Positions 5,328-64,000 of a stretch of DNA of 64,000 nucleotides are shown here, piece by piece. Position numbers and translations under genes: made by a program. The notes below the pieces were generated by a model. The model was not told the DNA's origin. It saw only the letters and a program-made list of their open reading frames with translations, and did no database searches. This DNA is from Acidobacteriota bacterium (GTDB taxonomy: Bacteria > Acidobacteriota > Vicinamibacteria > Vicinamibacterales > UBA2999). Every line of letters starts with the position of its first letter. The stretch's first letter is position 1. Where the stretch lies: contig VFZN01000002.1 of assembly GCA_016871195.1 (NCBI GenBank), forward strand, positions 196,690 through 260,689, given 5' to 3'.

Positions 5328-5459
5328 ATCGTTTCACCGTCAGACACACCACAGGGCCGGGCCTCCGCCGATGCGGACACCCGACCCCGATGATTGCTGC
5401 ACGCCGGCACCCGGAGGAGGACAGGTGCGGCATCAGCCAGTCGATGCGGTATCGCGGGC

Positions 5460-5491
5460 CCGGGGGCTGCGCTCAGTTGCGCGGCCCCCGG
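5460..5491. terminator. 13-bp GC hairpin downstream of the TonB-dependent receptor (minus strand) and convergent ybaN
   Basis: CCGGGGGCTGCGC(5460-5472) pairs with GCGCGGCCCCCGG(5479-5491) with one G-U wobble and a 6-nt loop. There is no U-tract. Confidence 0.4.
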
Positions 5492-5503
5492 ATGTCCCTG
5501 CCG

Positions 5504-7777: not shown

Positions 7778-7847
7778 AGTATTTCTAGTCTACCGGCGAC
7801 CGGGGGCCACTCAACAGGTCTGACCGATCAGCACCACGGAGATTTTC

Positions 7848-8561: not shown

Positions 8562-8571
8562 AGTGCAGGAC

Positions 8572-9972: not shown

Positions 9973-10017
9973 AGCCGCGGTTGCCCCGCGCGGGGCGGGC
10001 GGCGTACCATCCACGGT

Positions 10018-11130
10018 ATGACACCGCGAATCTGGCCGGCGCTGGCGCTGCTGTGCATCGGGGCCGTCACGCTCGGGGCGCAGGCCCCGCCGGCACCTGC
10101 CGACAACCGTGAGCGCGACTACCTGTCGCGTGTCCGTCGGCTCACCGTCGAGGGCCGTCGCGCGGGCGAGGGCTACTGGTCGCCCGACGGCACGCGGCTC
10201 GTCTTCCAGAGTGAACGCGACCCGGCCAACCCCTTCTACCAGATCTACACGCTCGACTTCGCCACCGGAGACACGAAGCGCGTGTCGCCCGGCACGGGCA
10301 AGACTACGTGCGCGTTCTTCCGGCCGGGCACCGACCAGATTCTCTTCGCGTCGACGCACCACGACCCGCGGTCCCTGCAACTGCAGAAGGAGGAACTCGA
10401 CTTCCGCGCCTCGGGCAAGGAACGCCGCTACGCGTGGGATTACGACCCCGAGATGGACATCTACGCGGTCGCGGAATCATCGGGCACGCTCACGCGCCTG
10501 ACCACCGCCCGGGGCTACGACGCCGAGGCGGGCTATTCCCCCGACGGCCAGTGGATTGTGTTTTCGTCGATGCGCGACGCCTACAACCGTACCCTGACGG
10601 CGGCGGAACAGAAACAGCTCGAGACCGACCCGAGCTATTTCGGCGAGATCTACATCATGAAGGCCGACGGCACCGATCAGCGCCGGCTCACCACCGCGGC
10701 CGGCTACGACGGCGGCCCCTTCTTCACCACGAAGGGCGACCGCATCGTGTGGCGACGCTTCGACGAGCAGGGGCTCATCGCCGACATCTGGACGATGAAG
10801 CCCGATGGCAGCGACAAGCGACAGGTGACGGCCTTCAAGGCGATGAGCTGGGCGCCCTACGAGCATCCGTCAGGCGAGTACCTGCTGTTTGCCTCGAACA
10901 AGCTCGGCTTCGAGAACTTCGAAGTGTTCGTCGTCGACACGGCGGGCACGAAAGAGCCGGTGCGCATCACCTACTCGGATGGCTTCGATGGTCTGCCCGT
11001 GCCCTCGCCCGATGGTCGTCAGGTGGCATTCACCTCGAGCCGCTCGGGCGGCGGTGCCGGACAGATTTTCCTGGCGCAGTGGAATCACGAGGCCGTGCGG
11101 ACGGCGCTGGCGGCTGCGCCGCCACGTTAA
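10018..11130 (+). CDS. Periplasmic TolB-like (PD40/WD40-like) beta-propeller protein
   Basis: The protein has a signal peptide. Repeated 'SPDG..ivF.S.R' PD40 units are present (YWSPDGTRLVFQSER, YSPDGQWIVFSSMRD, PSPDGRQVAFTSSRSG). TACCAT (10005-10010) lies 7 nt upstream of the ATG. Confidence 0.8.
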   Translation: MTPRIWPALALLCIGAVTLGAQAPPAPADNRERDYLSRVRRLTVEGRRAGEGYWSPDGTRLVFQSERDPANPFYQIYTLDFATGDTKRVSPGTGKTTCAFFRPGTDQILFASTHHDPRSLQLQKEELDFRASGKERRYAWDYDPEMDIYAVAESSGTLTRLTTARGYDAEAGYSPDGQWIVFSSMRDAYNRTLTAAEQKQLETDPSYFGEIYIMKADGTDQRRLTTAAGYDGGPFFTTKGDRIVWRRFDEQGLIADIWTMKPDGSDKRQVTAFKAMSWAPYEHPSGEYLLFASNKLGFENFEVFVVDTAGTKEPVRITYSDGFDGLPVPSPDGRQVAFTSSRSGGGAGQIFLAQWNHEAVRTALAAAPPR

Positions 11131-11157
11131 CAGCACCCGACCTGACACTGAAGACTG

Positions 11158-49943: not shown

Positions 49944-50942
49944 CTAGATCTGGAAGCCCGACCGCAACGGGTCGTCGGCGTCCAGCACAAACGTGTGCAT
50001 CCCGGTCATCCAGGCCTCACCCTCGATGACCGGGATCACCGCCGTGCGCTCCTCCATCCGCTGCAGCCCCGCCACCCGGCCGGTCAGTGTGAGTCCGAGC
50101 AGCGATTCCTGCACAAACGGCTGATCGTCAAGCAGCAGCCCCATCTCGGTCAGCACCGCCATCACGGCGGCCGTGGCCGTGCCACTCGCCGTGCGATCCA
50201 CCTGACCATCACTGCCCACCGCCACGCTCCGCAGGTGCGCATCACCCGTCGCCGGCCCGGTGAACACGGTCCCCGCCACGCCCGCCAGGTGCTCGTGCTG
50301 CGGATGCTGCACCCGCCGCAGCGCCGACACCTCGGCCGCAATCGCCACGCCCATGCGCCGCAGATCGTCGAGCCGATCGGGTCTGAGCGGAATGCCCACC
50401 GCCTCGGCATCCACCACCGCATGGAAGACCCCGCCGAACGCCAGATCGGCCCGCACGGTGCGCTCCTGTACCACCACGGGCACGCCGGCCTCCCACACAA
50501 ACGCGGGCACACCGGTGACACGCACCTGCGCCCCCTGTGCCGGTCCGCTGCCGTGAGACACATCCACGTCGGCCGTCACCCGGCCCGCCACCGTATCGAA
50601 GCGCCACGTGCTGATGTCACCACGCAGCAGGCCCTCACCAACGGCCAGCGCCGCCACGGCCATCAGTGCCTGCAGGTTGAGGGCCGGCCATCCACTGCCG
50701 TGCATGAACAGCACCCCGGCATGGCCATCCTCCGATGCCGCGTCGGTCAGCATCGCCCCCCACAGGTCGCGATGCCCCCGGGGCTCGCGCATCAGCGCCA
50801 GCCGATAGTGATCGAGCCGCCGCTCGGCCCACGCCTGCCGCTCGTGCATGCGCCGCCCCTGCGGGGCCGGCAACCCGTCGACCACGAGCCGAAGCGGCCC
50901 GCCGGCCACATGCGCATCCAGCGTCCGGAACGTATGAGTCAC
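49944..50942 (-). CDS. Proline racemase / 4-hydroxyproline epimerase superfamily protein, apparently lacking both catalytic Cys residues
   Basis: This is the C-terminal half of ORF 49944..51845. The start is set at GTG 50942 (GATAAT 6 nt upstream): (M)THTFRTLDAHVAGGPLRLVVDG.... Family blocks are GVLFMHGSGWPALNLQAL (versus GV.FfN..Gyl.MCGHgtI) and VDRTASGTATAA (versus DRSPCGTGTSA). Confidence 0.72.
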   Translation of the reverse strand: MTHTFRTLDAHVAGGPLRLVVDGLPAPQGRRMHERQAWAERRLDHYRLALMREPRGHRDLWGAMLTDAASEDGHAGVLFMHGSGWPALNLQALMAVAALAVGEGLLRGDISTWRFDTVAGRVTADVDVSHGSGPAQGAQVRVTGVPAFVWEAGVPVVVQERTVRADLAFGGVFHAVVDAEAVGIPLRPDRLDDLRRMGVAIAAEVSALRRVQHPQHEHLAGVAGTVFTGPATGDAHLRSVAVGSDGQVDRTASGTATAAVMAVLTEMGLLLDDQPFVQESLLGLTLTGRVAGLQRMEERTAVIPVIEGEAWMTGMHTFVLDADDPLRSGFQI

Positions 50943-50948
50943 CGCGGC

Positions 50949-50954
50949 ATTATC
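50949..50954 (-). promoter_or_regulatory. -10-like GATAAT, 6 nt upstream of GTG 50942 (leaderless-type)
   Basis: The minus strand reads ctGATAATgccgcgGTG. Confidence 0.4.
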
Positions 50955-50984
50955 AGTCAGGCCGTGGTGTACGCTGTGGGCGGC

Positions 50985-51914
50985 GTGCGCGCGTTCTATT
51001 CCGATCATTTCGTCCTGCCGCTGCCCGAGGGCCACCGCTTTCCGATGGCCAAGTATTCGGGGCTGCGCCAGCGCATCCTCGACAACGGCATCCTTCCGCG
51101 CACCGCCCTGCACGAGGCCCCGGCCGCCTCCTGGGATGACCTCCGGCTCGTGCACACACCCGCCTACGTCGACGCCGTGGCCACCGGCACCGTGGCCCCC
51201 GACATCCAGCGCCGCATCGGCTTTCCGTGGACGCCCGGCATGGTCGAGCGTTCGCGCCGCTCGGTCGGTGCCACCATCGCCGCCACGCAGGCGGCGCTCG
51301 ATGACGGCCTCGCCGCCAATCTCGCGGGGGGCACACATCATGCGTTTGCCGATCGCGGCGAAGGCTACTGCGTCTTCAACGACGTGGCGGTCGCCGCACG
51401 CGTGCTGCTGCGCGACTCTGCCCTCTCGCGCGTCGCCATCGTCGACTGCGATGTGCACCAGGGCAACGGCACCGCGGCCATCTTCCACCACGACCCGTCC
51501 GTGTTCACCTTCTCGATGCACGGCGCGACCAACTTTCCCTTCCGGAAGGAAGAGAGCGATCTCGATATCGCCCTGCCGGATGGCACGGGCGACGATGCGT
51601 ATCTGACGCTGCTTGAGACGCACCTGGCGCAGGTGCTCGACAGCCATCAGCCCGAGTGCGTGTACTATCTCGCCGGCGCCGATCCCTACGAAGGTGACCG
51701 CCTCGGCAAATTGAAACTCACGATCGCCGGCCTGCGTCGCCGCGACGACATCGTGCTGCAGCGGTGCCACGCCCTCGGCATTCCGACGGTCATCACCATG
51801 AGCGGCGGCTATGCCTATGACATCGACGCCATCGTCACGATTCACGCGGCCACCATCGAGGTGGCGGCCCGTCTCTCCGGAGTCTTGCCATGTCCCAGTC
51901 GTTCCGCCTGCTGA
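50985..51914 (+). CDS. Histone-deacetylase-family (class II HDAC / acetylpolyamine-amidohydrolase-like) zinc deacetylase
   Basis: This is the C-terminal half of ORF 49995..51914. The start is set at GTG 50985 ((M)RAFYSDHFVLPLPEGHRFPMAKY, a typical family N-terminus). Alternative GTGs are at 50964, 50967 and 50976. Catalytic blocks are GGTHHAFADRGEGYCVFND, VDCDVHQGNG, GADPYEGD and SGGY. Confidence 0.8.
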   Translation: MRAFYSDHFVLPLPEGHRFPMAKYSGLRQRILDNGILPRTALHEAPAASWDDLRLVHTPAYVDAVATGTVAPDIQRRIGFPWTPGMVERSRRSVGATIAATQAALDDGLAANLAGGTHHAFADRGEGYCVFNDVAVAARVLLRDSALSRVAIVDCDVHQGNGTAAIFHHDPSVFTFSMHGATNFPFRKEESDLDIALPDGTGDDAYLTLLETHLAQVLDSHQPECVYYLAGADPYEGDRLGKLKLTIAGLRRRDDIVLQRCHALGIPTVITMSGGYAYDIDAIVTIHAATIEVAARLSGVLPCPSRSAC

Positions 51915-52879
51915 ATGAAGCCGAAGTCGCTTCGCTGCTCTCGATGGGCGAGCTCATCGGCGTGATGGAAAGTGCGCTGGCGCGCTTCTCGGCCGGTGAT
52001 GTGCTGCAGCCGGTGCGCACCGTGCTGTCTGTCGGTCCGACGAAGGCGTTCTTCGGCGTGATGCCCGCCTACCTGCCCGACCCCGGCCGCATGGGCGCCA
52101 AGCTGGTGACGGTGTTCAACGGCAACGAGGCCCGCGGATTGCCCTCGCACCTGGCGACCATCCTGCTGCTCGACGCCGAGACCGGGGCCCTGTGCGGCAT
52201 CCTCGATGGCCGGTTCATCACCGAAGCGCGCACCGCTGCCGTATCCGCCGTCTCGGCGCGTCACCTGTCGCGCGTCGAGGCCTCGACACTCGCCATCCTT
52301 GGCACCGGCGTGCAGGCACGCAGCCACCTCGAGGCCCTGAAGGAAGTGCGCGGCCTCAAGGACATCCGGGTGTGGTCGCCCCGTCTCACGAGCCGTGAAC
52401 GCTTTGTGGAAGAGATGGCCCCGCACGTCACCGGCACGCTGCGGGCCACGCGTCATGCCGAGCAGGCGGTCGAAGGCGTCGACCTCATCGTGCTGGCGAC
52501 CTCGTCACCGACACCGGTCATCGAAAATGGCTGGGTGAGCGACGGCGCGCACATCATGTCCGTCGGGGCCTGCCGTCCCGACCAGCGCGAGATGGACCCG
52601 CGCCTCGTGGCCCGCGCCGAACTCTATGTCGACTCGAAGGCGGCCGCGCTCGTCGAGTCGGGCGACGTCGTCATGGGTATCAGGGAAGGCCGCTTCGGCG
52701 AGGCACACCTGCGGGGAGAACTCGGCGAGGTGGTGCTGCGCCGCGTGCATGCCCGCACGTCGCACGATCAGGTCACCATCTTCAAGTCGCTCGGCATGGC
52801 CGTCGAGGACGTGGCCGCAGCCGGCCTCGTGCTCGACCGCGCACACGAGCGTGGCATCGGCCAGTGGCTCGAGATCTGA
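51890..52879 (+). CDS. Ornithine cyclodeaminase / mu-crystallin family protein (candidate delta1-pyrroline-2-carboxylate reductase or cyclodeaminase)
   Basis: The opening is MSQSFRLLNEAEVASLLSMGELIGVMESAL. The Rossmann block is LAILGTGVQARSHLEAL. The gene overlaps the HDAC-like 3' end by 25 nt. Confidence 0.8.
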   Translation: MSQSFRLLNEAEVASLLSMGELIGVMESALARFSAGDVLQPVRTVLSVGPTKAFFGVMPAYLPDPGRMGAKLVTVFNGNEARGLPSHLATILLLDAETGALCGILDGRFITEARTAAVSAVSARHLSRVEASTLAILGTGVQARSHLEALKEVRGLKDIRVWSPRLTSRERFVEEMAPHVTGTLRATRHAEQAVEGVDLIVLATSSPTPVIENGWVSDGAHIMSVGACRPDQREMDPRLVARAELYVDSKAAALVESGDVVMGIREGRFGEAHLRGELGEVVLRRVHARTSHDQVTIFKSLGMAVEDVAAAGLVLDRAHERGIGQWLEI

Positions 52880-52888
52880 CGCCGGGGG

Positions 52889-53980
52889 TCAGAGTACGCG
52901 CTCAGCCCGCGGGTAGCTGCCCAGCACAGACAGCCGCGCACAGTGGCGCCCCGCATCAGCCAGCGCCCGCTGCATGGCCGGGTCATCCTTGTGCGCCAGC
53001 GCATCGAGGAAGAACAGATAGTCCCAGTGCGCATCGCCGCTGGGACGCTTCTCGATGTGCGACAGGTTGACGCCTTCGCGTCGGAAGCTGTCGAGCACTT
53101 CCACGAGCCCGCCGGCGCGATCGGCAAACGCAAACCACAGCGTGGTCTTGTCGGCACCGGTCGGCGGCACCGGCGCGCGCCCAATCACCAGGAAACGCGT
53201 GACATTGCCCGGGCGATCTTCGATGTGGTCGAACAGGGTACGCACGCCGTACAGCGTGCCCGCAAAGGATGAGGCCAGCGCCGCCGCACCCTCCTCGTCC
53301 CGCGCGCGCAGGACCGCGGCACTTGTGCTCGACTCGGCCACAAACTCGGCCTCGGGCATGACCCGCGCGCACCAGGCCCGGCACTGTGCATACGCCTGCG
53401 GCTTCGAGTAGAGCCGCCGCACCTCGCCCGGGGCGCAGTTGGCCAGGCACGCCAGCCTCACGCCCACCAGCGCCTCGGCCCTGATCGCCACCGGATGCGC
53501 CACCAGGGCATCGAGCGTCTCGTGAATCGAGCCGGTCGTCGAGTTTTCGTACGGCACCAGGCCATGATCGGCGCGACCCGCTTCCACCTCGATCACCACA
53601 TCTTCGATCGACGGCACAAACGCCAGCTCGACGCTCGAGCCGAAGTGACGGACCGACGCCAGATGGCTGTAGCTGCCCGAGGGTCCGAGGGCCGCCACAC
53701 GCAGCGGACGCTCGAGGGCGAACGAGCCCGACATGATTTCGCGGAACACCGCTTCGATCGTCGTGGCGCTGAGCGGTCCGTGGTTGCGGGCCACCGCACG
53801 CTCGATCACGGCACGCTCACGGCTCGGCGCGTACACCGGCACGTTCTCGTGCCGCTTGGCGTGGCCCACTTCGACGACGAGACGGGCCCGTTCCTCGAGG
53901 AGCCCGACGAGGCGGTCGTCGACGTCGTCAATGAGCGTCCGCAGTTCGGCGAGCGTGCGCGGGTGTGAAGGGGAAGACAT
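52889..53980 (-). CDS. pheA: Bifunctional chorismate mutase / prephenate dehydratase (P-protein)
   Basis: The N-terminal CM helix is LAELRTLIDDVDDRLVGLLEERARLV. The PDT block is VAALGPSGSYSHLA...ENSTTGSI. The C-terminal ACT domain is TTLWFAFADRAGGLVEVL..F...GVNLSHIEKRP. Confidence 0.88.
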   Translation of the reverse strand: MSSPSHPRTLAELRTLIDDVDDRLVGLLEERARLVVEVGHAKRHENVPVYAPSRERAVIERAVARNHGPLSATTIEAVFREIMSGSFALERPLRVAALGPSGSYSHLASVRHFGSSVELAFVPSIEDVVIEVEAGRADHGLVPYENSTTGSIHETLDALVAHPVAIRAEALVGVRLACLANCAPGEVRRLYSKPQAYAQCRAWCARVMPEAEFVAESSTSAAVLRARDEEGAAALASSFAGTLYGVRTLFDHIEDRPGNVTRFLVIGRAPVPPTGADKTTLWFAFADRAGGLVEVLDSFRREGVNLSHIEKRPSGDAHWDYLFFLDALAHKDDPAMQRALADAGRHCARLSVLGSYPRAERVL

Positions 53981-54032
53981 GCGGGGGTATTAGCCTGATC
54001 GCGTCAGGGTATCAGGAGCCACGGGCTCCGGG

Positions 54033-55466
54033 CTAGAGATTGAGAAACTTCTGGATGCGCTCGATCAGCGTGTCCTTGTGCGATAGCCGCCCGGCATCGG
54101 CGGCATCGGCCACCTGCTGCGCCTCGGCAAGGCCGGTGCGCCGCTCGGCAATCACACGCCCGATGGGTTCCAGCAGCGACGGATGTTCGCGCAGCAGCCC
54201 GGCCAGTGTCCCGGCACTGATCTCGAGCACCTGACAGGCAGAGGTCGCCCTGACCGTCGCTGACCGCGGAGCGCCGGTGAGCGCCGACATTTCGCCAAAG
54301 ACGCCGCCGACACCGATCGTGGCCACCTGCTGCTGGGAGGGTTCGAGCACCACCGCCACGTCACCCGACAGCACGACGAACATCGACCGTCCCGATGTGC
54401 CCTGCCGCACGATGGCCTCGCCGCGCGTGAACCACTGCAGCGGACTGGCCGTCGCGAGGCGCTGCCACAGGCTGGCAGGCAGGTGTGCGAAGAGCTCAAC
54501 ACGCCCCACGACCTCGGCGGCGCGCGCCTCGTCGTCGGTCGTCTGCGCGGGCGGCTCGGGGCGGCTGTACTCGACCTGAATCGGCCATGGAATCTCGATG
54601 CCGCTGCGACGGAACTCGTACCACAGGTTCGAGCGCACCTGATCGCGTGCCACCCGATCGGCGGCATAGTCGTCGATCCAGAACCTGATGCCGTAGTCGA
54701 CCGACGAGGCGCTGAAGGCATCGATGGTCACCAGCGGCGCCGGTGTCCGGTTGACCAGGGGCGCGTTGTCGAGGGCACGGCCGATGGCTTCCTTCACCGC
54801 GTGCGGCGGCGTGAGGTAGCTGACGCCAACGGTCACCTCGAGTCGCGTCGGCACGACCGGCTCGGAATAGTTGAGGATGACGTCCTTGGCCACCGTGCTG
54901 TTCGGCACGATCAGGAACTGGCCCATCTTGGTATGCAGCTTCGTCGCCCGCCAGGTCACTTCCTCGACGCGCCCCTCATGGCCGCCGATGCTGACCCACT
55001 GCCCCACGCGGAACGGCTTTTCGATCTGGATGGCCAGCCCCGCGAACAGATTGCCCAGCGTGTCCTGCAGGGCAAAGCCTACAACCACCGCGCCGACGGC
55101 AGAGGTCGCCAGCAGCTGCTCGCGCAAGATCAGCGTGGCGATCACCCCGAACAGCACGAGCACCGACGCATCCTGCACGATGGCCGGCATGCGCTCAGAC
55201 GGCCGCGATTCCTTCCACGGATTCGCCGCGACAGCCACCGTCATCGTCAGGACGGCGAGGACAACGGTGAGGCGCGCCAGCCCGGCCAGCAGCACCTGAT
55301 CGCCCAGCCCCTGGGCCAGTGCCGCATCGAGCCCCAGTGACACGACGAGCAGTGCGGCCGAAAACAGCAGGCGTCCGCGGATGTACCGGCTGCGGATGAT
55401 CACCGCCAGCAGCGCGATGGCCAGCAGGCCCGCAGCGGCGGCGATGACAGCGGTGGTCAGCGGCAC
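54033..55466 (-). CDS. MscS-family mechanosensitive channel with C-terminal cyclic-nucleotide-binding domain (bCNG-type)
   Basis: GTG start. The protein has TM helices and the MscS core LGNLFAGLAIQIEKPFRVGQWVSIGGHEGRVEEVTWRATKL. The CNBD is ...GEAIVRQGTSGRSMFVVLSG...FGEMSALTGAPRSATVRA. Confidence 0.82.
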   Translation of the reverse strand: MPLTTAVIAAAAGLLAIALLAVIIRSRYIRGRLLFSAALLVVSLGLDAALAQGLGDQVLLAGLARLTVVLAVLTMTVAVAANPWKESRPSERMPAIVQDASVLVLFGVIATLILREQLLATSAVGAVVVGFALQDTLGNLFAGLAIQIEKPFRVGQWVSIGGHEGRVEEVTWRATKLHTKMGQFLIVPNSTVAKDVILNYSEPVVPTRLEVTVGVSYLTPPHAVKEAIGRALDNAPLVNRTPAPLVTIDAFSASSVDYGIRFWIDDYAADRVARDQVRSNLWYEFRRSGIEIPWPIQVEYSRPEPPAQTTDDEARAAEVVGRVELFAHLPASLWQRLATASPLQWFTRGEAIVRQGTSGRSMFVVLSGDVAVVLEPSQQQVATIGVGGVFGEMSALTGAPRSATVRATSACQVLEISAGTLAGLLREHPSLLEPIGRVIAERRTGLAEAQQVADAADAGRLSHKDTLIERIQKFLNL

Positions 55467-55480
55467 GTGATCGCCTTGCG

Positions 55481-56644
55481 CTATGCGCCCGCGGCCGTCA
55501 GGCCGCCAGCCTTGCGGAATGCCTGCAGGTCGGCTGCGGAAATCGACACGGCCACCAGCGCCGGGTTGCTCCCGCCGCGCGCATCACGTTCGGGATCGAC
55601 TCCGCGGGCCGCGCCCGAGCCGGTCACCTGCGCCTGCGATTTTTCGCCGCCGCTGCCGGGCATCATGCGGCCCAGCCCGAAGCTGCGGCGCCTGGGCTCG
55701 TCCTTCTTCGCCTTGTCGTCTGCCGGGGCCGGCGCCGGTGCAGCCTTGCTGTCGCTGCCGGTCAGGCCGGCGGCACCGGCATCAACGGTGGCAATGTCGG
55801 AAAGGGGCTTCGGGGTGTAGGTGATGGCCTGGCGATAGCGCTCTGACAGCGTCACCGTGCCCGTCAGCTTCTGCTTCGTGATGGTGCCGGCAATGCCATC
55901 GAGGCGCGACTGCATGTCGGGATGCGAGGCGAACAGCCCACGCCGTTCCCTGGACGAGGCGTTGCGCTCCTTGAGGCGTGCGAGGATCGTGCCGAGCGCC
56001 GCGGGCTGATAGCCGACGCGACTGATGAGGGCCACGCCTGCCGCATCAGATTCGCGCTCGTCCTCGCGCCCGAATCCACGCTCGACAATCGACTCGTAGG
56101 TCGCGGCGACCACCCGATCGAGCAGCGCCGCGTTGCCAGAGAGAGTTTCCGAGGCCCCCATCTGCACGGCCTTCGTCTTCTGCATCGACCGGATGGTGTG
56201 CTTTCCGGTGATGTGCACAATCTCGTGCGCCAGCACGCCCGCCAGTTCGGCCTCGTCCTGCATCAGCGCCAGCGCGCCGCGTGTGATGTGCACATATCCG
56301 CCGGGCGCCGCAAAGGCGTTGACGCCGTCTGTGTCGAGCACGATGAACGTCCACGGCAGCGCCGGACGGCTGCTGGCGGCGGCGATGGTGCGGCCGACGA
56401 GGGACACATAGCGATGCACGGGCGCACTCTGCACCACGCCGTAGCGCTCGCGGATGCGCGCGCTGACATCCTGCCCCAGCTGCTGCTCCTCGGCGTCGGT
56501 CACCTGCAGGTCGCGCAGTTCACCGACCTTCTTCACGCCCTCGGTGACTTTGCCCAGCTGGCCGAGCTGTCCGGCCCCGGCCTCGACGCCCGACAGGGTG
56601 ATCAGCAGGGCCACCACGGTCATTCCCGTTCGACTGACTCTCAT
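55481..56644 (-). CDS. Secreted M48-family zinc metallopeptidase with low-complexity Ala/Pro/Lys linker and short C-terminal module
   Basis: The protein has a signal/anchor. The HEXXH is LAHEIVHITGKH and the downstream ligand region is ERESD. Its start overlaps the cyclase stop (ATGA). Confidence 0.8.
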   Translation of the reverse strand: MRVSRTGMTVVALLITLSGVEAGAGQLGQLGKVTEGVKKVGELRDLQVTDAEEQQLGQDVSARIRERYGVVQSAPVHRYVSLVGRTIAAASSRPALPWTFIVLDTDGVNAFAAPGGYVHITRGALALMQDEAELAGVLAHEIVHITGKHTIRSMQKTKAVQMGASETLSGNAALLDRVVAATYESIVERGFGREDERESDAAGVALISRVGYQPAALGTILARLKERNASSRERRGLFASHPDMQSRLDGIAGTITKQKLTGTVTLSERYRQAITYTPKPLSDIATVDAGAAGLTGSDSKAAPAPAPADDKAKKDEPRRRSFGLGRMMPGSGGEKSQAQVTGSGAARGVDPERDARGGSNPALVAVSISAADLQAFRKAGGLTAAGA

Positions 56645-58665
56645 GCGCGCACCTCGAAAATCTCCGCGGGCTGCGTCTTGCCCTTCACGGTCACCGTCCC
56701 CAGCGGCCGCACATCGTACTGTCCCCGCAGCAGGGCCCGTGTCGCCTCGCTGATGATGATACGCGTACCATACTCCTTGTTGAGCGACTCGAGGCGCGCC
56801 CCCAAGTTGACCGCGTCGCCGATGACCGTGTAGCTCATCACCTGATCCGATCCGATGTTCCCGGCGACCATCTCGCCGCTGTTGATGCCGATGCCGATGT
56901 CGAACGGCGGCGCCCCCCGGGTGGCGCGCTCGGCATTGAGGGCTGCCAGCGCCCGCACCATCGCCAGCGCCGTCTGCACCGCGTGGTCGGCGTGGGCCTC
57001 GTCATCGACCGGCGCGCCGTAGAGCGCCATCACCATGTCACCGACAAACTTGTCGAGCGTCCCCTGGTGGGCAAACACGAGCGCCACCATGCGCGTGAAA
57101 TAGTCGTTGAGCTGCGCCACCATCGCCTCGGGCGACTCGCGTTCGGTCAGGCTGGTAAACCCGCGCATGTCCGAAAACAGCACCGTCATGAACCGCCGCG
57201 TGCCGCCGAGCTGCGCCAGCTGCGGCGCCTCGAGCAGTTGCTGGTAGACCGCCTTCGACACATAGCGCGAGAAGAGACGCGTCACCTTCCGTCGCTCGCG
57301 CCCTTCGACCACATAGTGCCAGCCGAGATCGCCGACAAACGCCAGCCCCAGCGCCGCCAGCGGCATCACCATCGGCCACCACACACCACCGCCGAAGGTG
57401 ACGACCGTGCCCCACACCCACGCGCCGCCGGTCACCAGGGCCACGGCCCCGGCCACCCACACGGTCGACAGGGCCCCCACCACCGACACCAGCAGCGTCA
57501 GGGCCACCATGGCCCCGAGGGCCTGCCAGCGCGGGGCCTGCACCAGCTGGCGCCCGCCGAGCATCGCGTCGATGGTCTGCGCATGCACCTCGGGGCCGGC
57601 CATCTTCCCTTCGGTGAATGGGGTGGTGAACACATCGTGCAGCCCCTGGGCCGTCACGCCCACCACCACCACCTTGTCGCGGAACTGCGCAGGCGCCACA
57701 GACGGCGTCACTCCTTCCATCAGCTCCTGTTGCGCAAGAAACAGGTCATAGAACGACTGCCTCGGCAACGCCGCAGTGCCATCCGAGCCGACGGCAGCGG
57801 CGGCCCAGGGCAGCAGCGCCCGGCAGGTCGTGCGCACCGTGCCATCCGGTTCCTCGAGGCGACCGGCCATCAGCGGCCAGTCAAGGGCCCCCGCGCGCAG
57901 GTGCGTCGGCGAGGCAGTGAGGTCACGTCCGGTCAGGCCTTGTGCCAGCAGCACCGCGGCCAGCGGCAGCGAGGGCAGCACCACTGGCCCACCGCCGGGA
58001 CGCTCGACGCTCACGAGCGGCACCACGCGCCGCAGCGGACCGTCGGCGTCGTAGACCATCAGGCTGTGGCCCACGCCCGCCGATGCCTGCGCCAGCTCGG
58101 GAAACGGCAGCACGGTCTGCGGACGTCCTTCGACACAGGCCGTGTGTCCGAGCCGGGCCGTGCGGTCGGGCAGCACCGACACATCCACCGGCAGCGCCCG
58201 CGCGGCATCGCGCGCCCCGCTGCTGGCTGCCTCGGCGGCATGCACGACCATACCCGCCGCCCGGGTCGAGTCGACGAGTGCCTGGTCCGATTCCTGACCC
58301 GTCCACTCGGTCTCACCGACCATGAACGTGCGCCGGTCCCCTTCCGCAAACAGCACGTCGTAGACGACCGCCCGCGCCCCCGCGGCCGCCAGATAGTCGA
58401 CGACGAGCGCATGCACCAGGCGCGGCCATGGCCAGCGGCCCACCAGTGGCTCCATGCGCCGCAGGCTCTCATCGTCAATGGCGACGACGATGACGGGTGA
58501 CGAGGGGCTGAGGCGATCCGCCGTCGTCTGTCGTACGCGCCAGTCGTAGGTCTTGAGCTCGATGGTGTCGGCGAAGCCTGTCAGACTCAGCCCGGCCGCC
58601 ACGAGGGACGCGGCCAGGGCGAGCAGCAGCCGTGGCGCAAGGCGAGTGAGTCGACCAGCGGGCAT
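56641..58665 (-). CDS. CHASE2-domain membrane sensor fused to a class III adenylate/guanylate cyclase
   Basis: ORF 56641..58686 (GTG). I prefer ATG 58665 (GATAAT 6 nt upstream) or 58668. The CHASE2 opening is TGFADTIELKTYDWRVR, followed by TM helices. The cyclase core is VTVLFSDMRGFTSLTE...FVGDMVMALYGAP...GINSGEMVAGNIGS...YTVIGDAVNLGARLE. Confidence 0.85.
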   Translation of the reverse strand: MPAGRLTRLAPRLLLALAASLVAAGLSLTGFADTIELKTYDWRVRQTTADRLSPSSPVIVVAIDDESLRRMEPLVGRWPWPRLVHALVVDYLAAAGARAVVYDVLFAEGDRRTFMVGETEWTGQESDQALVDSTRAAGMVVHAAEAASSGARDAARALPVDVSVLPDRTARLGHTACVEGRPQTVLPFPELAQASAGVGHSLMVYDADGPLRRVVPLVSVERPGGGPVVLPSLPLAAVLLAQGLTGRDLTASPTHLRAGALDWPLMAGRLEEPDGTVRTTCRALLPWAAAAVGSDGTAALPRQSFYDLFLAQQELMEGVTPSVAPAQFRDKVVVVGVTAQGLHDVFTTPFTEGKMAGPEVHAQTIDAMLGGRQLVQAPRWQALGAMVALTLLVSVVGALSTVWVAGAVALVTGGAWVWGTVVTFGGGVWWPMVMPLAALGLAFVGDLGWHYVVEGRERRKVTRLFSRYVSKAVYQQLLEAPQLAQLGGTRRFMTVLFSDMRGFTSLTERESPEAMVAQLNDYFTRMVALVFAHQGTLDKFVGDMVMALYGAPVDDEAHADHAVQTALAMVRALAALNAERATRGAPPFDIGIGINSGEMVAGNIGSDQVMSYTVIGDAVNLGARLESLNKEYGTRIIISEATRALLRGQYDVRPLGTVTVKGKTQPAEIFEVRA

Positions 58666-58671
58666 CATGGG

Positions 58672-58677
58672 ATTATC
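58672..58677 (-). promoter_or_regulatory. -10-like GATAAT immediately upstream of the tandem ATG-ATG of the cyclase gene
   Basis: The minus strand reads cgcGATAATcccATGATG. The spacing is 3 nt to the first ATG and 6 nt to the second. Confidence 0.4.
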
Positions 58678-58886
58678 GCGGGGCACCCGCGACTGGGCAG
58701 TCGGGAGAAGACGGAGGCATCCTCAGGAACGGTAGCAACGGCACGGGCAACCGTGCACGAGGATAGCGGATTAGCTGCCGCAGTGCTCCGCTGGAAGGAG
58801 AGACAGGGGATGCTCCGTGGCAGGGCTGCCTGCGAGGTGCGAATACCCACCGCGCCCGGCACCGGCGAGAGCATCGCCCCCGGACA

Positions 58887-59195
58887 CTACCCCCCGCTCC
58901 GCCGCTGGTCGAGAAACCGATTGAACGCCTCGCGGGCCTCGACGCTCGTGAACAGCGCCTCGTGGGCGCCGCCAGGCATCTCGAAGACACTGTTTCGCGG
59001 GCAGCTGCTGCACGCGTCAAGGGCCTGTCTGAACAGCGGCCACGACCGCATCTGGATGGCCGTGTCGGCCAGCCCCTGCACAAACAGGGCGTCGGCGCGA
59101 AATCCCGAGGTGAACGACAGCAGCGAGCGATCGCGATAGGGCCTGGGATTCGCGGACGGCCCCCCGGGGCCAGGACCACCGTGGACGATGACCGG
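58887..59195 (-). pseudogene. Remnant of an alpha/beta-hydrolase (S9/dienelactone-hydrolase-like) gene with the nucleophile-containing core missing
   Basis: Own translation of the ORF 58887..59081 frame extended upstream: ..PVIVHGGPGPGGPSANPRPYRDRSLLSFTSGFRADALFVQGLADTAIQMRSWPLFRQALDA...FEMPGGAHEALFTSVEAREAFNRFLDQ*. The HGGPG oxyanion-type block and the C-terminal 'G.D......GGxHe' His block are only about 70 aa apart. There is no GxSxG block and no plausible start codon. Confidence 0.45.
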
Positions 59196-59276
59196 ACCGG
59201 GTCGTCGCCGTGACCTCGGCCGACCCGGTCCGACTGGCTGGCACGCTGCCTCCGTTCGATGCGCCGCGTCGCATCC

Positions 59277-59492
59277 TCACTGCGGAGCGACCGTCGTGGT
59301 CGCCGGCGCACCGCGCGTGTACTTGTCGAACCAGTGGCGGAGATACAGCTGCGTACGCACGAAATTCGACGGCGTGCTGGTCGTGCCGTGAGCCTCGTTA
59401 TTGAAGCGGATCATCGCTGTCGGCACCTTGAGCAGCTTCAACGCACTGTAGAACTGCTCCGTCTGCGGCATCGGCGTCCGCATACGCGGCAC
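59277..59492 (-). pseudogene. Isolated C-terminal fragment of an S9-family peptidase
   Basis: ..RMRTPMPQTEQFYSALKLLKVPTAMIRFNNEAHGTTSTPSNFVRTQLYLRHWFDKYTRG matches the S9 C-terminus pattern (RvP..Q.eqfy.ALk..gvp.....yp.E.HG......N......l.WFdkYL). An in-frame TGA lies just upstream. No catalytic Ser domain is found in any frame. Confidence 0.45.
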
Positions 59493-59749
59493 GGCCCAGG
59501 CTCGCCAGGTGCTTCATGTAGACCTGAAACTCCCCGTGCCAATCATGGTACGCATCAGGATGCGGACGTCTGCAGACCGACGGTTGCCTCGGCAACGAAA
59601 GAGTGCCTGTCGCTCGGGACGACGTGACGGAATTCGCCCGGGAGAGGGCAGACGCAGGAGGAGATACCCGAGCGCGCACGCTTCACGCGACAAGTGACGC
59701 ACCAGACCGCCGGTCACTGCCTGCGCACGAATGGTCCGGTCGATCCGTG

Positions 59750-59778
59750 TTTACAGTCACCCGGGCATGCTGTATGCT
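59750..59778 (+). promoter_or_regulatory. Sigma70-like promoter TTTACA-N17-TATGCT upstream of the third TonB-receptor-like gene
   Basis: The -35 is TTTACA (59750-59755) and the -10 is TATGCT (59773-59778), with a 17-nt spacer. About 80 nt of leader ends in AAAGGAG 6 nt before ATG 59865. Confidence 0.4.
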
Positions 59779-59864
59779 CCGCGCGTCAGTCGAAGACCCC
59801 GGCAACACCGCAACACAGTTCTGTCCTTCGCTTCGCTCAAGTCGGATCGTGAAAGGAGTCGCGG

Positions 59865-62792
59865 ATGCGTGTACGGCAATCTGCAAGTCTGGCGCTGGGT
59901 CTGTACCTGGCATTGTCAACACTTCCTGCGATGGCACAGACCGGCGCCGGCGGTCTGCGTGGGTTCGTTAAGGATGAATCGGGCGGTGTGCTGCCGGGCG
60001 TGACGGTGACGGCCACCGGCCCCGAGTTGATTCAGCCGGTCGTCGTCGTCACCGACGAGACCGGCCTGTATCGTTTAATCAACCTTCCTCCAGGCACGTT
60101 CACGATCGCGGCCGAACTGGCCGGCTTCACCACCACGCAGCGCGAGGGCATTCTCGTCCGCGCCGGCCAGACCTTCACGCTCGACATCCAGATGGGGCTG
60201 AGCACCCTGGCCGAGACGATCACCGTCTCCGGCGAGTCGCCGATGATCGAGACGACGAAGGCGACGACGTCGATCACTCTCGATCGTGATCTGATTCGCG
60301 CGGCGCCGATCAGTTCGCGGCGTGTATTCAGCGACGCGCTTGACCTGGCGCCGGGCATCTCGTCGCGGAATGTGGACGACGGCGTCGGCCGCCGCTCCTA
60401 CTACTTCAAGGGCGCGGTCATCTTCGCCCACGTCTTCACGCTCGAGGGCGCGCCGGCCGGCTCGTTCCTCGACTCCTCGGCGCACTCGATCGGTTTCGGG
60501 GGCGAGAACATCCAGGATACCGAGCTGAAGCTGGCGGGCGTCGATCCCGCCTCGCCGACCGGCACCGGCGTCGTCATGAACATCATGGCGCCGCGCGGCG
60601 GCAACCAGTTCCGGGGCGCCTTCATGTACGACTACCAGAGCATCGACTGGAACTCGGACAACACCAAGGGCGGCAGCGCGCCGGGCGGGCTGCCGACGAT
60701 CCAGTCGGTCAACCAGTTCGACGCCTCGCTCGGCGGGCCGATCATGCGGGACCGGATCTGGTTCTTCTCGTCCTTCCGGCGTGCCGATCTGGCCAACGGC
60801 ATCAGCCGGTCCGAGTTCAACGTCGACAACGTGCGGGCCAACGACCCGAACTTCCGCGACTTCAACAACTTCATGGAGAGCAACCAGCCGTTCGTGAAGG
60901 TCACCGCGCAGCTCAACTCCCGGCACGAGTTGACCGGTTTCTACCAGAATGACCGCTCGCGCTTCTCCAGCAACCGCGAACTCGACAACCGGCCGTACCT
61001 GTTCAACTCCACCGGCGGCGGTCTCTACCACGGCCGGGTCAACTCGGTGTGGACCAACCAGCTGACGACCTCGCTCGCCTACAACTACAACAACAAGCGC
61101 GGCAACGACGAGGACACCTATCGCGACCTGGTCATCACCGGGCCGCAGCGCGAGATTCACCAGAACGCGTTCACCCAGCAGGGCCTTCAGGTCGGCACCG
61201 GCTCGCTGGCCCGCTTCGACAACCCGGCCCAGATCGCGCTCTCGAAGTCGAACATGACGGTGATCCGCGGCGACCTCACCTACTACAAGACGGGTTGGAA
61301 GGGTGGCCACGAGTTCCGCACCGGCATCTGGTGGGCGCCCGAGCTGGTGCGCGAGACGACGACGCGATACCCGAACGGCGGCTTCTCGCTGCAGTTCGAT
61401 CGGTACACCAATGGCGTCGATCCGTCAGGCGGCTACACGACGTTCCGGCAGCAGTTCCGCTCGCCCGAACTCGTCCCAACCATCCGCGAACGCGACAAGG
61501 TGTTCGCCTTCTACGTCCAGGACGCCTGGACGCCGAGCTCGCGCCTGACTATCAATGGCGGCGTGCGTGTTGACGTCAATCGCCGCTTCGACGAACTGCT
61601 CCAGGTTCACCGCCAGAAGGCCACGATGGTGCAGCCGCGCGTCGGCGTGTCGTACCTGATTACCGACGACGCGCGCAATGTCATCCGCGCCAGTTACGGC
61701 CGCCTCGCCGAGCAGGTGAATGGCCGTGACTACATGGTGACTTTCAATACGCTGGGTGCAGTCGAAACCACCGACGTGTACATCGCTCCGGATGGCAGCC
61801 GGACCACGGTCGTGACACCGCCCACCCGCAGCATTGATCCGAGCGTGCTGTTCGACCCCAACCTGCACCAGCCGTTCGTCGACGAGATGTCGGTCGGCTA
61901 CAACAGGCAGTTGCCCGGACAGATCAGCGTTGGCGCCGCGTTCACCCATCGCCGCTACCAGGACAACTTCGCCGAGGTCGACATCAACGGCTTCTATCCT
62001 TCCGGGCCGTTCCAGCCGTTCGGCGGCTTCGGGCGGGTCGATCCGAATCAGGGCATCGTCACCCAGCAGACCAATAACGCCTGGACCGACGTCGTCGTCA
62101 ACGCCGCGGAGGTGACGTTCGCCAAGAACATGGCCAACAACTTCCAGCTCATCGGCAGCGCGACCTACCAGTGGCAGTTCCTGTCGGGCACGTGGAACCC
62201 GACGGACCCTGCCCGGTTCGTCCAGCCGGATGCCTTCGCCAACAACCGGGATCTGTCCCAGCAGCTCTTCGGCAATGGCGACGACAACACGCTGAACGGA
62301 GGCGGACGCGAATCTGGCGCTGCCTATCGACCGTTCTCGGTCCGCATCGGCGGACAGTGGAACGCGCCGTGGGGCATCAGCGTGGGCGGCAGCTACGTCA
62401 TCCAGGCTGGGGGGTTCGTCGGTCCGCTGCTGGTCCAGTTGCCCGCCACCGACCCTCAGGTCACTCAGTTCGGGCCGTCGACGGTTCGCCTCGCCAACGG
62501 TCGCACCCAGCCGAATCCGCTGGCTACGCGCCTGCGCTTTCAGGGGCCGACGCGCAGTGAGGGTCAGATCCGTAACGACGATGCGAAGTTCCTGCAGCTG
62601 AAAATCGGCCGGATCTTCCGTTTCGGGATGCGCAGCATCGAGCCGGCCGTCAACATCTTCAACGTCTTCAACAACAACGCGAACACGCAGTGGAACATCG
62701 GCGCCAACCAGATCTACAGCCCGAACTACCTGGCGCGGTTCAACCGGCATCCGCCCCGCTCGTTTCAGTTGTCGGCGGCGCTGAAGTTCTAG
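59865..62792 (+). CDS. CarboxypepD_reg-fronted TonB-dependent-receptor-like outer-membrane beta-barrel protein
   Basis: The signal peptide ends ..LPAMAQT. The CarboxypepD_reg block is GLRGFVKDESGGVLPGVTVTATG...TDETGLYRLINLPPGTFTI. The C-terminus is FQLSAALKF. Confidence 0.85.
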   Translation: MRVRQSASLALGLYLALSTLPAMAQTGAGGLRGFVKDESGGVLPGVTVTATGPELIQPVVVVTDETGLYRLINLPPGTFTIAAELAGFTTTQREGILVRAGQTFTLDIQMGLSTLAETITVSGESPMIETTKATTSITLDRDLIRAAPISSRRVFSDALDLAPGISSRNVDDGVGRRSYYFKGAVIFAHVFTLEGAPAGSFLDSSAHSIGFGGENIQDTELKLAGVDPASPTGTGVVMNIMAPRGGNQFRGAFMYDYQSIDWNSDNTKGGSAPGGLPTIQSVNQFDASLGGPIMRDRIWFFSSFRRADLANGISRSEFNVDNVRANDPNFRDFNNFMESNQPFVKVTAQLNSRHELTGFYQNDRSRFSSNRELDNRPYLFNSTGGGLYHGRVNSVWTNQLTTSLAYNYNNKRGNDEDTYRDLVITGPQREIHQNAFTQQGLQVGTGSLARFDNPAQIALSKSNMTVIRGDLTYYKTGWKGGHEFRTGIWWAPELVRETTTRYPNGGFSLQFDRYTNGVDPSGGYTTFRQQFRSPELVPTIRERDKVFAFYVQDAWTPSSRLTINGGVRVDVNRRFDELLQVHRQKATMVQPRVGVSYLITDDARNVIRASYGRLAEQVNGRDYMVTFNTLGAVETTDVYIAPDGSRTTVVTPPTRSIDPSVLFDPNLHQPFVDEMSVGYNRQLPGQISVGAAFTHRRYQDNFAEVDINGFYPSGPFQPFGGFGRVDPNQGIVTQQTNNAWTDVVVNAAEVTFAKNMANNFQLIGSATYQWQFLSGTWNPTDPARFVQPDAFANNRDLSQQLFGNGDDNTLNGGGRESGAAYRPFSVRIGGQWNAPWGISVGGSYVIQAGGFVGPLLVQLPATDPQVTQFGPSTVRLANGRTQPNPLATRLRFQGPTRSEGQIRNDDAKFLQLKIGRIFRFGMRSIEPAVNIFNVFNNNANTQWNIGANQIYSPNYLARFNRHPPRSFQLSAALKF

Positions 62793-62797
62793 TCGAG

Positions 62798-62826
62798 CCC
62801 GGGGCCCCGTCGAGGGGCCCCGGGCG
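62798..62826 (+). terminator. Perfect 12-bp GC hairpin 6 nt after the receptor stop
   Basis: GCCCGGGGCCCC-GTCGA-GGGGCCCCGGGC. Confidence 0.5.
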
Positions 62827-62894
62827 CGGTCCTACGAGGACAGTCGAAGTTCGCGCTTGCCGGTCCTGTGGCGTTTATGGTGCAGTAAGGTTCC

Positions 62895-64000
62895 ATGACT
62901 CGCGCGCATGACCGGCGTGCCCCCTCAGTGTCCCGGTCTGGTCCGGCGGCCGGCGCTGCGGCAGGCGGACGTAGGGCACTACTGCTCGGCGCAGCCGCGC
63001 TCATGGTTATCGGCAGCGGAGTCGCATGGTACCTCGGCAGACCAGACGGCGGAAGAGAGCCCCCTGGCGCCGGAAGTCCGGCGCGGGCGCCCGACATCCT
63101 GCTCATTACCCTGGACACCACACGGGCGGATCGGCTCGGCACTTATGGCTACGCGGCGGCCGCCACGCCGCGCCTTGATCAGCTCGCACGCCAGGGCGTG
63201 CGCTTCGAGCGGGCACTGTCCCCGGTGCCGCTCACATTGCCTGCGCACGCCAGCCTGATGACCGGACGTGAACCGTTCCGGCACGGAGTCCGCAACAACG
63301 GCCACTTCGTCCTGCCCGGCGACGTGCCGACGTTGGCCGAGGCGCTGACCGCGCGGGGCTATGACACGGCGGCGTTTGTCAGCGCGTTCGTGCTCGATCG
63401 ACGGTTCGGCCTCGCCCGCGGTTTCGGTCACTACGACGACGGGCTGGACGCCCCCGCGACCGGGGCCTTCGTATCGCTGGAGCTGGAGCGACGCGGCGAT
63501 CGCACCGTAGCTGCGGCCCGCGCCTGGCTGGACACGGCGACTCGACGCAATGGTCGCCGGCCGTACTTCGTCTGGGTGCACCTCTACGACGCCCACGAGC
63601 CCTACGCACCGCCGTCCCCGTTCCGCGAGCGCTTCGACGGTCGCTCATACGACGGTGAGCTCGCCTTTCAGGACGCCGTCGTCGGCGAACTGCTCGACGC
63701 CACGGGATTCGGAGGCGCCGCGTCGCCGCTTGTGGTGGTCGCCGGCGATCACGGCGAAAGTCTGGGTGAGCACGGCGAGAGCACCCACGGGCTGTTCGTT
63801 TATGATGCCGTCCTGCGCGTGCCGTTGATCGTCGCGTGGCCCGCTCGACTGCAGCCGGCGACCGTGTCGACCCCGGTCCGCCTGCTGGACCTCGCCCCGA
63901 CGATCCTCGATCTGGCCGGCGGACCCGGACTGGATGGGGCCGATGGCCTGACACTGCGCGGCCTGCTGGAGCCCCGTGGACAGGCCGACGAGCCGTCACC
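62895..64000 (+). CDS. Sulfatase-fold (alkaline-phosphatase superfamily) membrane-anchored protein, 5' part; continues past the window end
   Basis: Own translation from ATG 62895: MTRAHDRRAPS...ALLLGAAALMVIGSGVAWYL...PDILLITLDTTRADRLGTYGY..TPRLDQLARQGVRFERALSPVPLTLPAHASLMTGR...YFVWVHLYDAHEPY...VVVAGDHGESLGEHGESTHG...DLAPTILDLAG. The frame is open to the window end. It is absent from the ORF track because it has no stop. Confidence 0.8.
   Translation, partial: MTRAHDRRAPSVSRSGPAAGAAAGGRRALLLGAAALMVIGSGVAWYLGRPDGGREPPGAGSPARAPDILLITLDTTRADRLGTYGYAAAATPRLDQLARQGVRFERALSPVPLTLPAHASLMTGREPFRHGVRNNGHFVLPGDVPTLAEALTARGYDTAAFVSAFVLDRRFGLARGFGHYDDGLDAPATGAFVSLELERRGDRTVAAARAWLDTATRRNGRRPYFVWVHLYDAHEPYAPPSPFRERFDGRSYDGELAFQDAVVGELLDATGFGGAASPLVVVAGDHGESLGEHGESTHGLFVYDAVLRVPLIVAWPARLQPATVSTPVRLLDLAPTILDLAGGPGLDGADGLTLRGLLEPRGQADEPS

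Follow-up and report, generated by a model that had tools for sequence, protein, structure and literature searches.

Organization of the locus

The window analyzed here, a stretch of 64,000 nucleotides (nt) from contig VFZN01000002.1 of a soil acidobacterium, carries three adjacent minus-strand genes that encode a predicted CHASE2 receptor adenylate cyclase, a secreted M48 zinc metalloprotease, and an MscS-type channel bearing a cyclic-nucleotide-binding domain (CNBD). The best matches of all three proteins lay in Vicinamibacterales (Acidobacteriota). The cyclase gene (56641..58686; 681 amino acids [aa]) was recognized from its open reading frame (ORF), Pfam matches, hydropathy, and catalytic motifs; the M48 gene (55481..56644; 387 aa) from an N-terminal signal-like segment, Pfam, invariant columns, and alignment to BepA and 3C37; and the channel gene (54033..55466; 477 aa, with a GTG start at 55466) from Pfam and its orthologues. 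A preliminary description of this DNA had reported that the genes are tightly packed, with an ATGA overlap and a 14-nt gap, and its coordinates proved exact to the base: the TGA of the cyclase gene and the ATG of the M48 gene share positions 56641..56644, and the M48 TAG (55481-55483) is separated from the channel GTG by a 14-nt spacer (55467..55480), with AAGG approximately 8 nt before the start. The identities proposed there (CHASE2 plus class III cyclase, M48, and MscS-CNBD) were likewise confirmed by Pfam, all assignments for the three proteins being well over the gathering scores. Since the homologues of the cyclase measure 668 to 669 aa, its genuine start may be one of two neighboring ATG codons located 6 or 7 codons 3' of the GTG at 58686. 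No terminator-like sites were predicted between 52500 and 60000, no convincing promoter was found around the operon, an Rfam scan of 50000 to 64000 returned no matches, and no meaningful repeats were found in the region. From the overlaps, the absence of predicted terminators, and the conserved gene order described below, we infer that the three genes form one transcript.

Receptor cyclase and cyclic-nucleotide-binding channel

The first gene product has the layout of a CHASE2 receptor. Pfam placed the extracytoplasmic CHASE2 sensor domain (PF05226; 4.6e-52, 177.6 bits against a cut-off of 26.3) at aa 27 to 402 (57481..58608), and hydropathy peaks at aa 20 to 38 and 389 to 429 set this domain between a first transmembrane helix (approximately aa 20 to 38) and a cluster of transmembrane helices (approximately aa 389 to 470), the hydrophobic stretch continuing, as read from the sequence, to about aa 470. 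Because hydropathy gave one N-terminal helix and a helix cluster after CHASE2, the sensor is predicted to be periplasmic and the cyclase domain cytoplasmic. The class III catalytic domain (aa 500 to 672, 56671..57189; PF00211, 99 bits) aligned as a whole to Synechocystis Cya2 (2W01) and Pseudomonas aeruginosa CyaB (3R5G). In these alignments, the metal-binding aspartates were found at D506 (in FSDMRGFT) and D550 (in FVGD) and the transition-state residues at N627 and R631 (in VNLGARLE), which upheld the earlier claim of an intact cyclase core. The specificity pair consisted of K546 (DKFVGD), a position occupied by Glu in the guanylate cyclase Cya2, and T620 (YTVIG), as in CyaB. A Lys/Thr pair specifies ATP as the substrate in class IIIb adenylate cyclases, and the window enzyme, whose catalytic residues are intact, is predicted to be a member of this class; nearly all of the orthologous cyclases kept the class IIIb motifs.

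The third gene product combines the pore and vestibule of an MscS channel (MS_channel_2nd, 72 bits; MS_channel_3rd, 39 bits) with a CNBD at aa 344 to 428 (54183..54437; PF00027, cNMP_binding, 71 bits), as do the bCNG channels. The pore motif GFALQDTLGN.FAG was invariant in the channel orthologues, and the CNBD aligned to the domains of PKG, PKA, HCN, and MloK1. The canonical motif noted beforehand (FGEMSAL...PRSATVRA) was located at aa 390 to 407, with the cassette F390-G391-E392 ... R401-S-A403-T; F390, G391, E392, R401, and A403 were invariant in 31 orthologues, some of them from lineages only 33 to 46% identical overall. The channel CNBD is a canonical cyclic AMP (cAMP)-type domain and has an intact phosphate-binding cassette. 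On Azospirillum lipoferum 4B plasmid AZO_p2 (locus L089, positions 5138-12478), a bCNG-like channel gene was flanked by a BLUF (blue-light) domain gene and by NAGGN osmoprotectant synthesis genes, and its surroundings contained no cyclase.

A probably latent M48 protease

The Peptidase_M48 match of the second gene product spanned aa 79 to 251 (98 bits). Both the HExxH motif (HEIVH at aa 140 to 144) and the downstream glutamate zinc ligand of M48 enzymes were present, and H140, E141, H144, and E196 were invariant and aligned to H136, E137, H140, and E201 of BepA. HExxH was kept in all 60 of the M48 ORFs from the CHASE2-bearing loci described below. Further residues, H241, R247, and D200, aligned to His246, Arg252, and Asp205 of BepA. 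In BepA, this histidine is an autoinhibitory plug that is held by the said arginine and aspartate, and M48 proteases in general have been said to be held latent by such a plug (bioRxiv 10.64898/2026.07.01.735768). The latency-type residues were invariant in 58 M48 orthologues, and since the residues on which BepA latency depends were retained, the window M48 is probably a regulated, latent protease. AlphaFold modeled the protease core with confidence, and the best matches of this model among solved structures were a Geobacter M48 protein (3C37) and the BepA protease domain (Foldseek E of approximately 1e-8 for the soluble M48 fold).

Assignment of the protease to a characterized M48 family was considered and rejected in each case. 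The NCBIfam BepA model (M48_BAM_BepA) gave 97.7 bits against a cut-off of 570, and no TPR domain was matched by Pfam in the window protein; the LoiP model gave 58 bits against a cut-off of 365; and the HtpX models gave at most 28 bits against cut-offs of 355 to 422.

A conserved module at the protease C terminus

The M48 protein had been described as ending in an Ala/Pro/Lys-rich linker and a small C-terminal module. Both are real: a low-complexity Ala/Pro/Lys linker at approximately aa 296 to 320 leads to a conserved unit (here termed the C-module) at aa 316 to 387 (55484..55699). That view of the module stood as to its existence and required extension, in that the module is also a recognizable conserved unit which elsewhere occurs as a separate secreted protein encoded between the cyclase and M48 genes. 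In the fused form, the conserved pattern was FGLGRM.P..GGEK..AQVTGSGAARGVDPE..(G)GSNP..V.V.IS.ADL.AFRKAGGL, within which the segment ARG(V/L)(D/S)xE was invariant. In the nonacidobacterial loci, a third gene lay between the cyclase and M48 genes, in most cases overlapping each of them by 4 nt, and encoded a secreted protein of approximately 160 to 200 aa consisting of a signal peptide, a bacterial SH3 (SH3b) domain, and the C-module. Pfam SH3_3 matched the Vibrio profundi protein at 34 bits (cut-off, 27) and the Chitiniphilus protein at 25 bits, under the cut-off; it did not match the other two small proteins that were scanned. The free module carried the signature SGSSG.TV.TGVRGLSEEDL..A.PN...L......A..FA..GKL, and no Pfam or NCBIfam model matched the C-module.

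When the fused and free modules were compared with hhalign, 64 columns aligned with the same order of motifs (P = 9.6e-5; probability, 58%), and bridging proteins from three loci (L080, L059, and L070) matched both hidden Markov models. Divergent small proteins from Planctomycetota, Terriglobales, and other Acidobacteriota shared a two-part signature, A.RG(L/V) followed by F(K/Q).(D/E)GK(L/I). Together, the moderate profile score, the bridging proteins, and the shared signature suggest that the last 72 residues of the window M48 correspond to the module of the small secreted protein. Given homology between the M48 C terminus and the C-module of the small protein, the acidobacterial gene is predicted to be a fusion of protease and module from which the SH3b domain was lost. 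Simple read-through is ruled out as the origin of the fusion, because the fused order (M48, then module) reverses the gene order found elsewhere.

AlphaFold left the invariant ARGVDPE stretch unstructured (predicted local distance difference test [pLDDT] of 30 to 60), and the last approximately 25 residues were modeled at a pLDDT of 94 to 97. In one protein of the acidobacterial M48 type (P0291; 481 aa), the first half of the module occurred three times in tandem (repeat GGFLGKLS.P.GSGEKQ.RAEVTGTGAGRGVG.E) and was followed by the terminal helix part only once. The tandem copies and the flexible stretch in the model would be in keeping with a short linear motif that serves as a site of binding or cleavage. 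The small protein was not found in a search of plasmids. A word-indexed search with the Undibacterium small protein returned 75 matches, all named "hypothetical" or "SH3 domain-containing" and none from a model organism.

Unusual arrangements were also seen. Two loci contained two tandem small-protein genes followed by one M48 gene (L068:5647-7684 and L083:5635-7684), and another contained two successive small-protein/M48 pairs (L028:746-3730). In a Gemmatimonadaceae locus (L037:4041-6872), the cyclase ORF ran on without a stop for approximately 270 aa; within this extension were a hydrophobic stretch resembling a signal peptide and a module-like ASAGARGV motif. Either a sequencing error or an uncommon in-frame joining of the cyclase and small-protein genes accounts for it. 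A single predicted product of 962 aa (P0361) led from a CHASE2 cyclase directly into the signal peptide and protease of an M48; probable explanations are read-through or a frameshift where the genes overlap at ATGA, or an artifact of gene calling.

Conservation of the gene set

To survey the locus across genomes, M48 motifs were used as seeds for scanning GTDB at one genome per species. This returned 80 loci, which were searched, together with eight other fetched loci, by tblastn with segments of each of the three window proteins. Every ORF from these loci, along with those of the window region, entered a clustering that covered 83 loci after removal of near-duplicates. ORFs in the fetched loci, most of which came from metagenome-assembled genomes, were called mechanically and checked by conservation across loci. 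In this M48-seeded sample, the M48 subfamily almost always adjoined a CHASE2 protein; the pair was present in 54 nonredundant loci, the window included, from five phyla (Acidobacteriota, Pseudomonadota, Planctomycetota, Gemmatimonadota, and Nitrospirota). Carriers among the Beta- and Gammaproteobacteria included Undibacterium terreum, Chitiniphilus shinanonensis, Vibrio profundi, Gallionella, Thiobacillus, and others, and those among the Planctomycetota were Tepidisphaerales. Two more contigs, in which genes had been called independently and marked with Pfam domains, also showed the pairing. The M48 gene is not the odd gene wedged between cyclase and channel that it had been taken for; of all the partners of this CHASE2 cyclase family, it is the one conserved most widely. 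Most of the loci lacking CHASE2 held BepA-like paralogues of 477 to 597 aa that share the seed motifs.

Co-occurrence of the trio in related genomes, which had been put forward beforehand as a test, was upheld. A CHASE2 cyclase lay beside M48 in all 18 of the nonredundant, deeply diverged acidobacterial loci (window included), and the channel was present in 15 of the 18; pairwise M48 identity among these loci was mostly 40 to 60%. Independent gene calls on metagenome and genome contigs gave the order cyclase-M48-channel in several Vicinamibacterales lineages, with the cyclase and M48 only in one lineage. The 4-nt cyclase/M48 overlap recurred in at least 10 related loci, and the M48 and channel genes overlapped by 4 to 8 nt in L001, L016, and L019. 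In L009, the channel gene is on the opposite strand and still adjacent, as it is in L021 (Thermoanaerobaculia), where the order is M48-cyclase. Across the 83 loci, no genuine gene family recurred apart from the small protein, the channel, M48, and the CHASE2 protein; immediate flanks were heterogeneous, with no flanking family common to more than seven loci. Since adjacency was kept while flanking families reached at most seven loci, the trio is linked more strongly than its surroundings. The channel emerges from these distributions as a clade-specific acidobacterial addition to a conserved core of cyclase and M48.

Four CHASE2 receptors without any cyclase motif still kept the small protein and M48 (L041:4600-6306, L043:4627-6336, L072:4377-6185, and L086:4570-6198), and therefore the partners are tied to the CHASE2 sensor and not to the output domain. 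The cytoplasmic domain of these four receptors, of approximately 200 aa and without a Pfam match, may represent a degenerate cyclase-like domain. When 114 immediate neighbors were classified with Pfam, no further conserved partner emerged, and cAMP-related genes were merely scattered among them. GAF plus HD_5 proteins were immediate neighbors in four loci and a class II cAMP phosphodiesterase in two, and cAMP-related genes lay near proteobacterial triads (L040:2801-4459, L093:1472-2776, and L095:10235-10987); in L093 an HD/HD_5 protein was encoded approximately 1.4 kb upstream of the cyclase, and in L095 a gene for a CRP-type regulator lay at a distance of 3 kb. The cAMP readers or erasers attached to this one sensor cassette may differ from lineage to lineage.

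Flanking genes in the window

On the same strand, pheA (chorismate mutase/prephenate dehydratase with an ACT domain, by Pfam; 52889-53980) starts 52 nt after the channel stop. It was rejected as a member of the operon: among the loci read, it followed the channel only in the window and in an 87%-identical relative (L096) and was missing from this position in more distant lineages. On the other side, a 1.2-kb gap between the cyclase gene and a divergent 975-aa gene (59865-62792) is occupied by two minus-strand C-terminal gene fragments without N-terminal parts, one alpha/beta hydrolase-like (58887-59126; ...GGAHEALF...RRSGG*) and the other S9 peptidase-like (59277-59471; MPQTEQ...NNEAHG...APQ*). 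The two share one frame and are apparent pseudogene remnants. Genes upstream of the cyclase in the 87%-identical relative were other than those in the window.

Interpretation of the operon

Our favored interpretation, to which we assign a probability of roughly 55%, is that the three genes form one signaling pathway leading from the cell envelope to an ion channel. The M48 protease with its C-module would act as a periplasmic co-sensor of CHASE2. The protease would stay latent until an envelope cue freed its plug; the freed enzyme would then cut or release the flexible ARG(V/L)(D/S)xE segment of the module, or cut the CHASE2 ectodomain, and this cleavage event would switch the cyclase. The resulting cAMP would bind the channel CNBD and alter gating, giving rise to a flux of ions or solutes. 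Action of the protease on the CHASE2 signal or sensor had been raised beforehand as a speculation, and the survey lends it comparative support. More tentatively, we propose that CHASE2 is a protease-gated receptor for which a latent M48 and the module serve as dedicated periplasmic partners in at least five phyla, with the cleavage state of the module as the signal, and that the pathway ends, in Vicinamibacteria, at a cAMP-gated MscS channel. If true, this would be a complete bacterial receptor-cyclase-to-channel cascade and would provide the first assigned physiological input for bCNG channels.

Several observations weigh against this pathway. Homology between the fused and free modules was given by a moderate profile score (58%; P of approximately 1e-4) plus context, and a whole-library profile search with the fused module never reached the proteobacterial small proteins, its 151 clusters all being of the acidobacterial fused type or fragments thereof; since the library search missed the proteobacterial proteins, the homology rests on the profile-profile comparison, the bridging sequences, and context. 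When the C-module was folded alone, the confidence of its terminal helix was approximately 78 to 88, compared to 94 to 97 in the full-length model, a modest fall. The sample was centered on M48, and its counts give M48s with a CHASE2 neighbor, not CHASE2 cyclases with an M48. Two loci (L048:6270-7726 from Nitrospirales and L070:6118-7693 from Nitrospinaceae) encode a module-like protein and a short M48 but lack a CHASE2 protein within 7 kb; they are either exceptions to the pairing or cases in which the CHASE2 partner is encoded elsewhere. The channel was lost at least three times (L002, L010, and L024) with retention of the cyclase-M48 pair, and therefore the cyclase must have further targets. 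Finally, published bCNG channels mostly failed to protect Escherichia coli against osmotic downshock (PMC13591265).

We also considered the possibility that the M48 is a dedicated maintenance protease, which would mature, fold, or clear damaged copies of the CHASE2 receptor or module protein while CHASE2 alone senses the cue. We regard this as unlikely, but it is the alternative that survives best. Among solved structures, the window M48 comes nearest to the quality-control protease BepA and to the uncharacterized Geobacter M48, and BepA also has a nonproteolytic, chaperone-like role; moreover, tight operon coupling would suit an obligate biogenesis factor equally well. However, maintenance leaves unexplained why the module is a separate conserved unit with an invariant flexible motif and a protease fusion, and why the partner protein carries an SH3b domain, and the window M48 is without the TPR domain of BepA and scores far under the NCBIfam cut-offs for BepA and LoiP.

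A somewhat more doubtful alternative to the envelope-to-channel pathway is that the channel lies beside the cyclase through inherited gene order and is an ordinary mechanosensitive valve, or answers the cAMP of any cyclase, so that there is no private circuit. Indeed, cAMP is diffusible, the channel is limited to one phylum-level clade in which it was lost three times, and the bCNG-like channels on Azospirillum, Rhizobium, and Burkholderia replicons were without an adjacent cyclase in 4 of 4 cases. Because of these losses and the lack of a cyclase neighbor in the four proteobacterial cases, the cyclase-channel link must be considered clade specific. Inherited order nevertheless fits poorly with an adjacency that outlasts strand inversion and reordering (L009 and L021), with a linkage that spans lineages having 35 to 50% M48 identity while flanking genes turn over, with the M48/channel overlaps, and with the invariant CNBD cassette. 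In addition, a cyclase near a cAMP-regulated MscS channel is also found in marine Synechococcus islands (PMC7522525).

It is highly improbable that the locus is a Pycsar-like anti-phage system, in which an infection-induced cyclic nucleotide acts on a CNBD membrane effector that kills the cell by permeabilization: PADLOC cyclase models did match the cyclase domain (1.6e-25) and effector models the CNBD (2.5e-17), and the two genes are close together, but those matches span only the generic cyclase and CNBD folds, and the protease had no PADLOC match. The cyclase is of a receptor type, with a periplasmic domain and the Lys/Thr pair specific for purines. Moreover, the locus belongs to the core genome, with synteny preserved throughout an order; its neighbors are housekeeping genes (pheA, ornithine cyclodeaminase, and proline racemase), no defense or mobile genes are nearby, and the Pycsar combination of a cytosolic pyrimidine cyclase, a CNBD effector, and a defense-island context was not found.

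Novelty and significance

The CHASE2 domain was reportedly catalogued by Zhulin et al. in 2003, about two decades ago. The factors recognized by CHASE2 were still stated to be unknown in 2016 (PMC5192318). The co-encoded protease and peptide module are thus placed before us as concrete candidates for CHASE2 switching, and the bCNG channel here is tied to a defined cyclase. A literature search found no relevant link of CHASE2 with M48 or the C-module: the one paper naming both CHASE2 and M48 was unrelated, and the association was not the subject of any of the 40 best-ranked among 68 papers mentioning CHASE2. Most subscription journals were outside its coverage, and this result is therefore an absence of evidence only. 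Each of the domains is known, and it is the latent M48 and module as accessories, together with the direct channel output, that appear to be undescribed. Proximity of cyclase and channel is not wholly new, since adenylate cyclases occur near a cAMP-regulated MscS channel in the Synechococcus islands (PMC7522525). The system could be rebuilt from three or four genes, and genetics is feasible in the cultured carriers Undibacterium terreum, Chitiniphilus shinanonensis, and Vibrio profundi.

Comparison with known systems

The bCNG channels are MscS homologues described by Caldwell et al. (2010) and Malcolm et al. (2012) and summarized in a 2026 review, according to which the described members are mostly cyanobacterial and neither a physiological role nor a structure is stated (PMC13591265). 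The window channel differs in belonging to Acidobacteriota and in sharing an operon with a specific receptor cyclase, which was absent beside the four sampled proteobacterial relatives. Myxococcus class III cyclases respond to high osmotic pressure, which by analogy fits an MscS-type output and proves nothing for the present system.

Two described CHASE2 systems resemble the operon in part. The Sinorhizobium meliloti CHASE2 cyclases CyaD1, CyaD2, and CyaK act together with the outer-membrane protein NsrA and the regulator Clr; perception requires NsrA, and the signal is proteinaceous (PMC13001267 and references therein). In both cases a CHASE2 receptor cyclase co-occurs with a separate envelope protein; in S. 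meliloti the accessory is an outer-membrane beta-barrel and the receptor of the cyclic nucleotide is a CRP-type transcription factor, whereas in the window these places would be taken by the M48 with its module and by an ion channel. The Burkholderia "BiofilmReg" operon encodes a CHASE2 histidine kinase with a periplasmic LysM and FecR protein (PMC5192318). Here too a CHASE2 sensor is co-encoded with a secreted protein of a cell-wall-binding type (LysM in Burkholderia, SH3b in the proteobacterial form of the present system), but the output of the window receptor is a cyclase and not a kinase, and the BiofilmReg partner is a FecR protein, with no protease and without the C-module.

The M48 protein shares the soluble M48 fold with E. 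coli BepA (6AIT and 6SAR), with the zinc ligands, plug histidine, and Arg/Asp pair aligning residue for residue; unlike BepA, it has no TPR domain, has a shorter and less hydrophobic lid, and has a different C-terminal module and genomic partner. In the CpxA-CpxP (PMC4160245) and PdeC (PMC5897775) systems, proteolysis of a periplasmic accessory protein or of a sensor domain changes the output of a membrane signaling enzyme. These share only their logic with the window operon, the families being unrelated. Cleavage in Cpx and PdeC signaling falls to a general protease (DegP/DegQ) whose gene is not part of the operon concerned. In sea urchin sperm, a receptor guanylate cyclase feeds a cGMP-gated K+ channel. 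That cascade is eukaryotic and employs another channel family and another mode of ligand perception, and it is an analogy and not a homology; what it would have in common with the pathway proposed here is a receptor cyclase that feeds a channel directly, with no transcription step.

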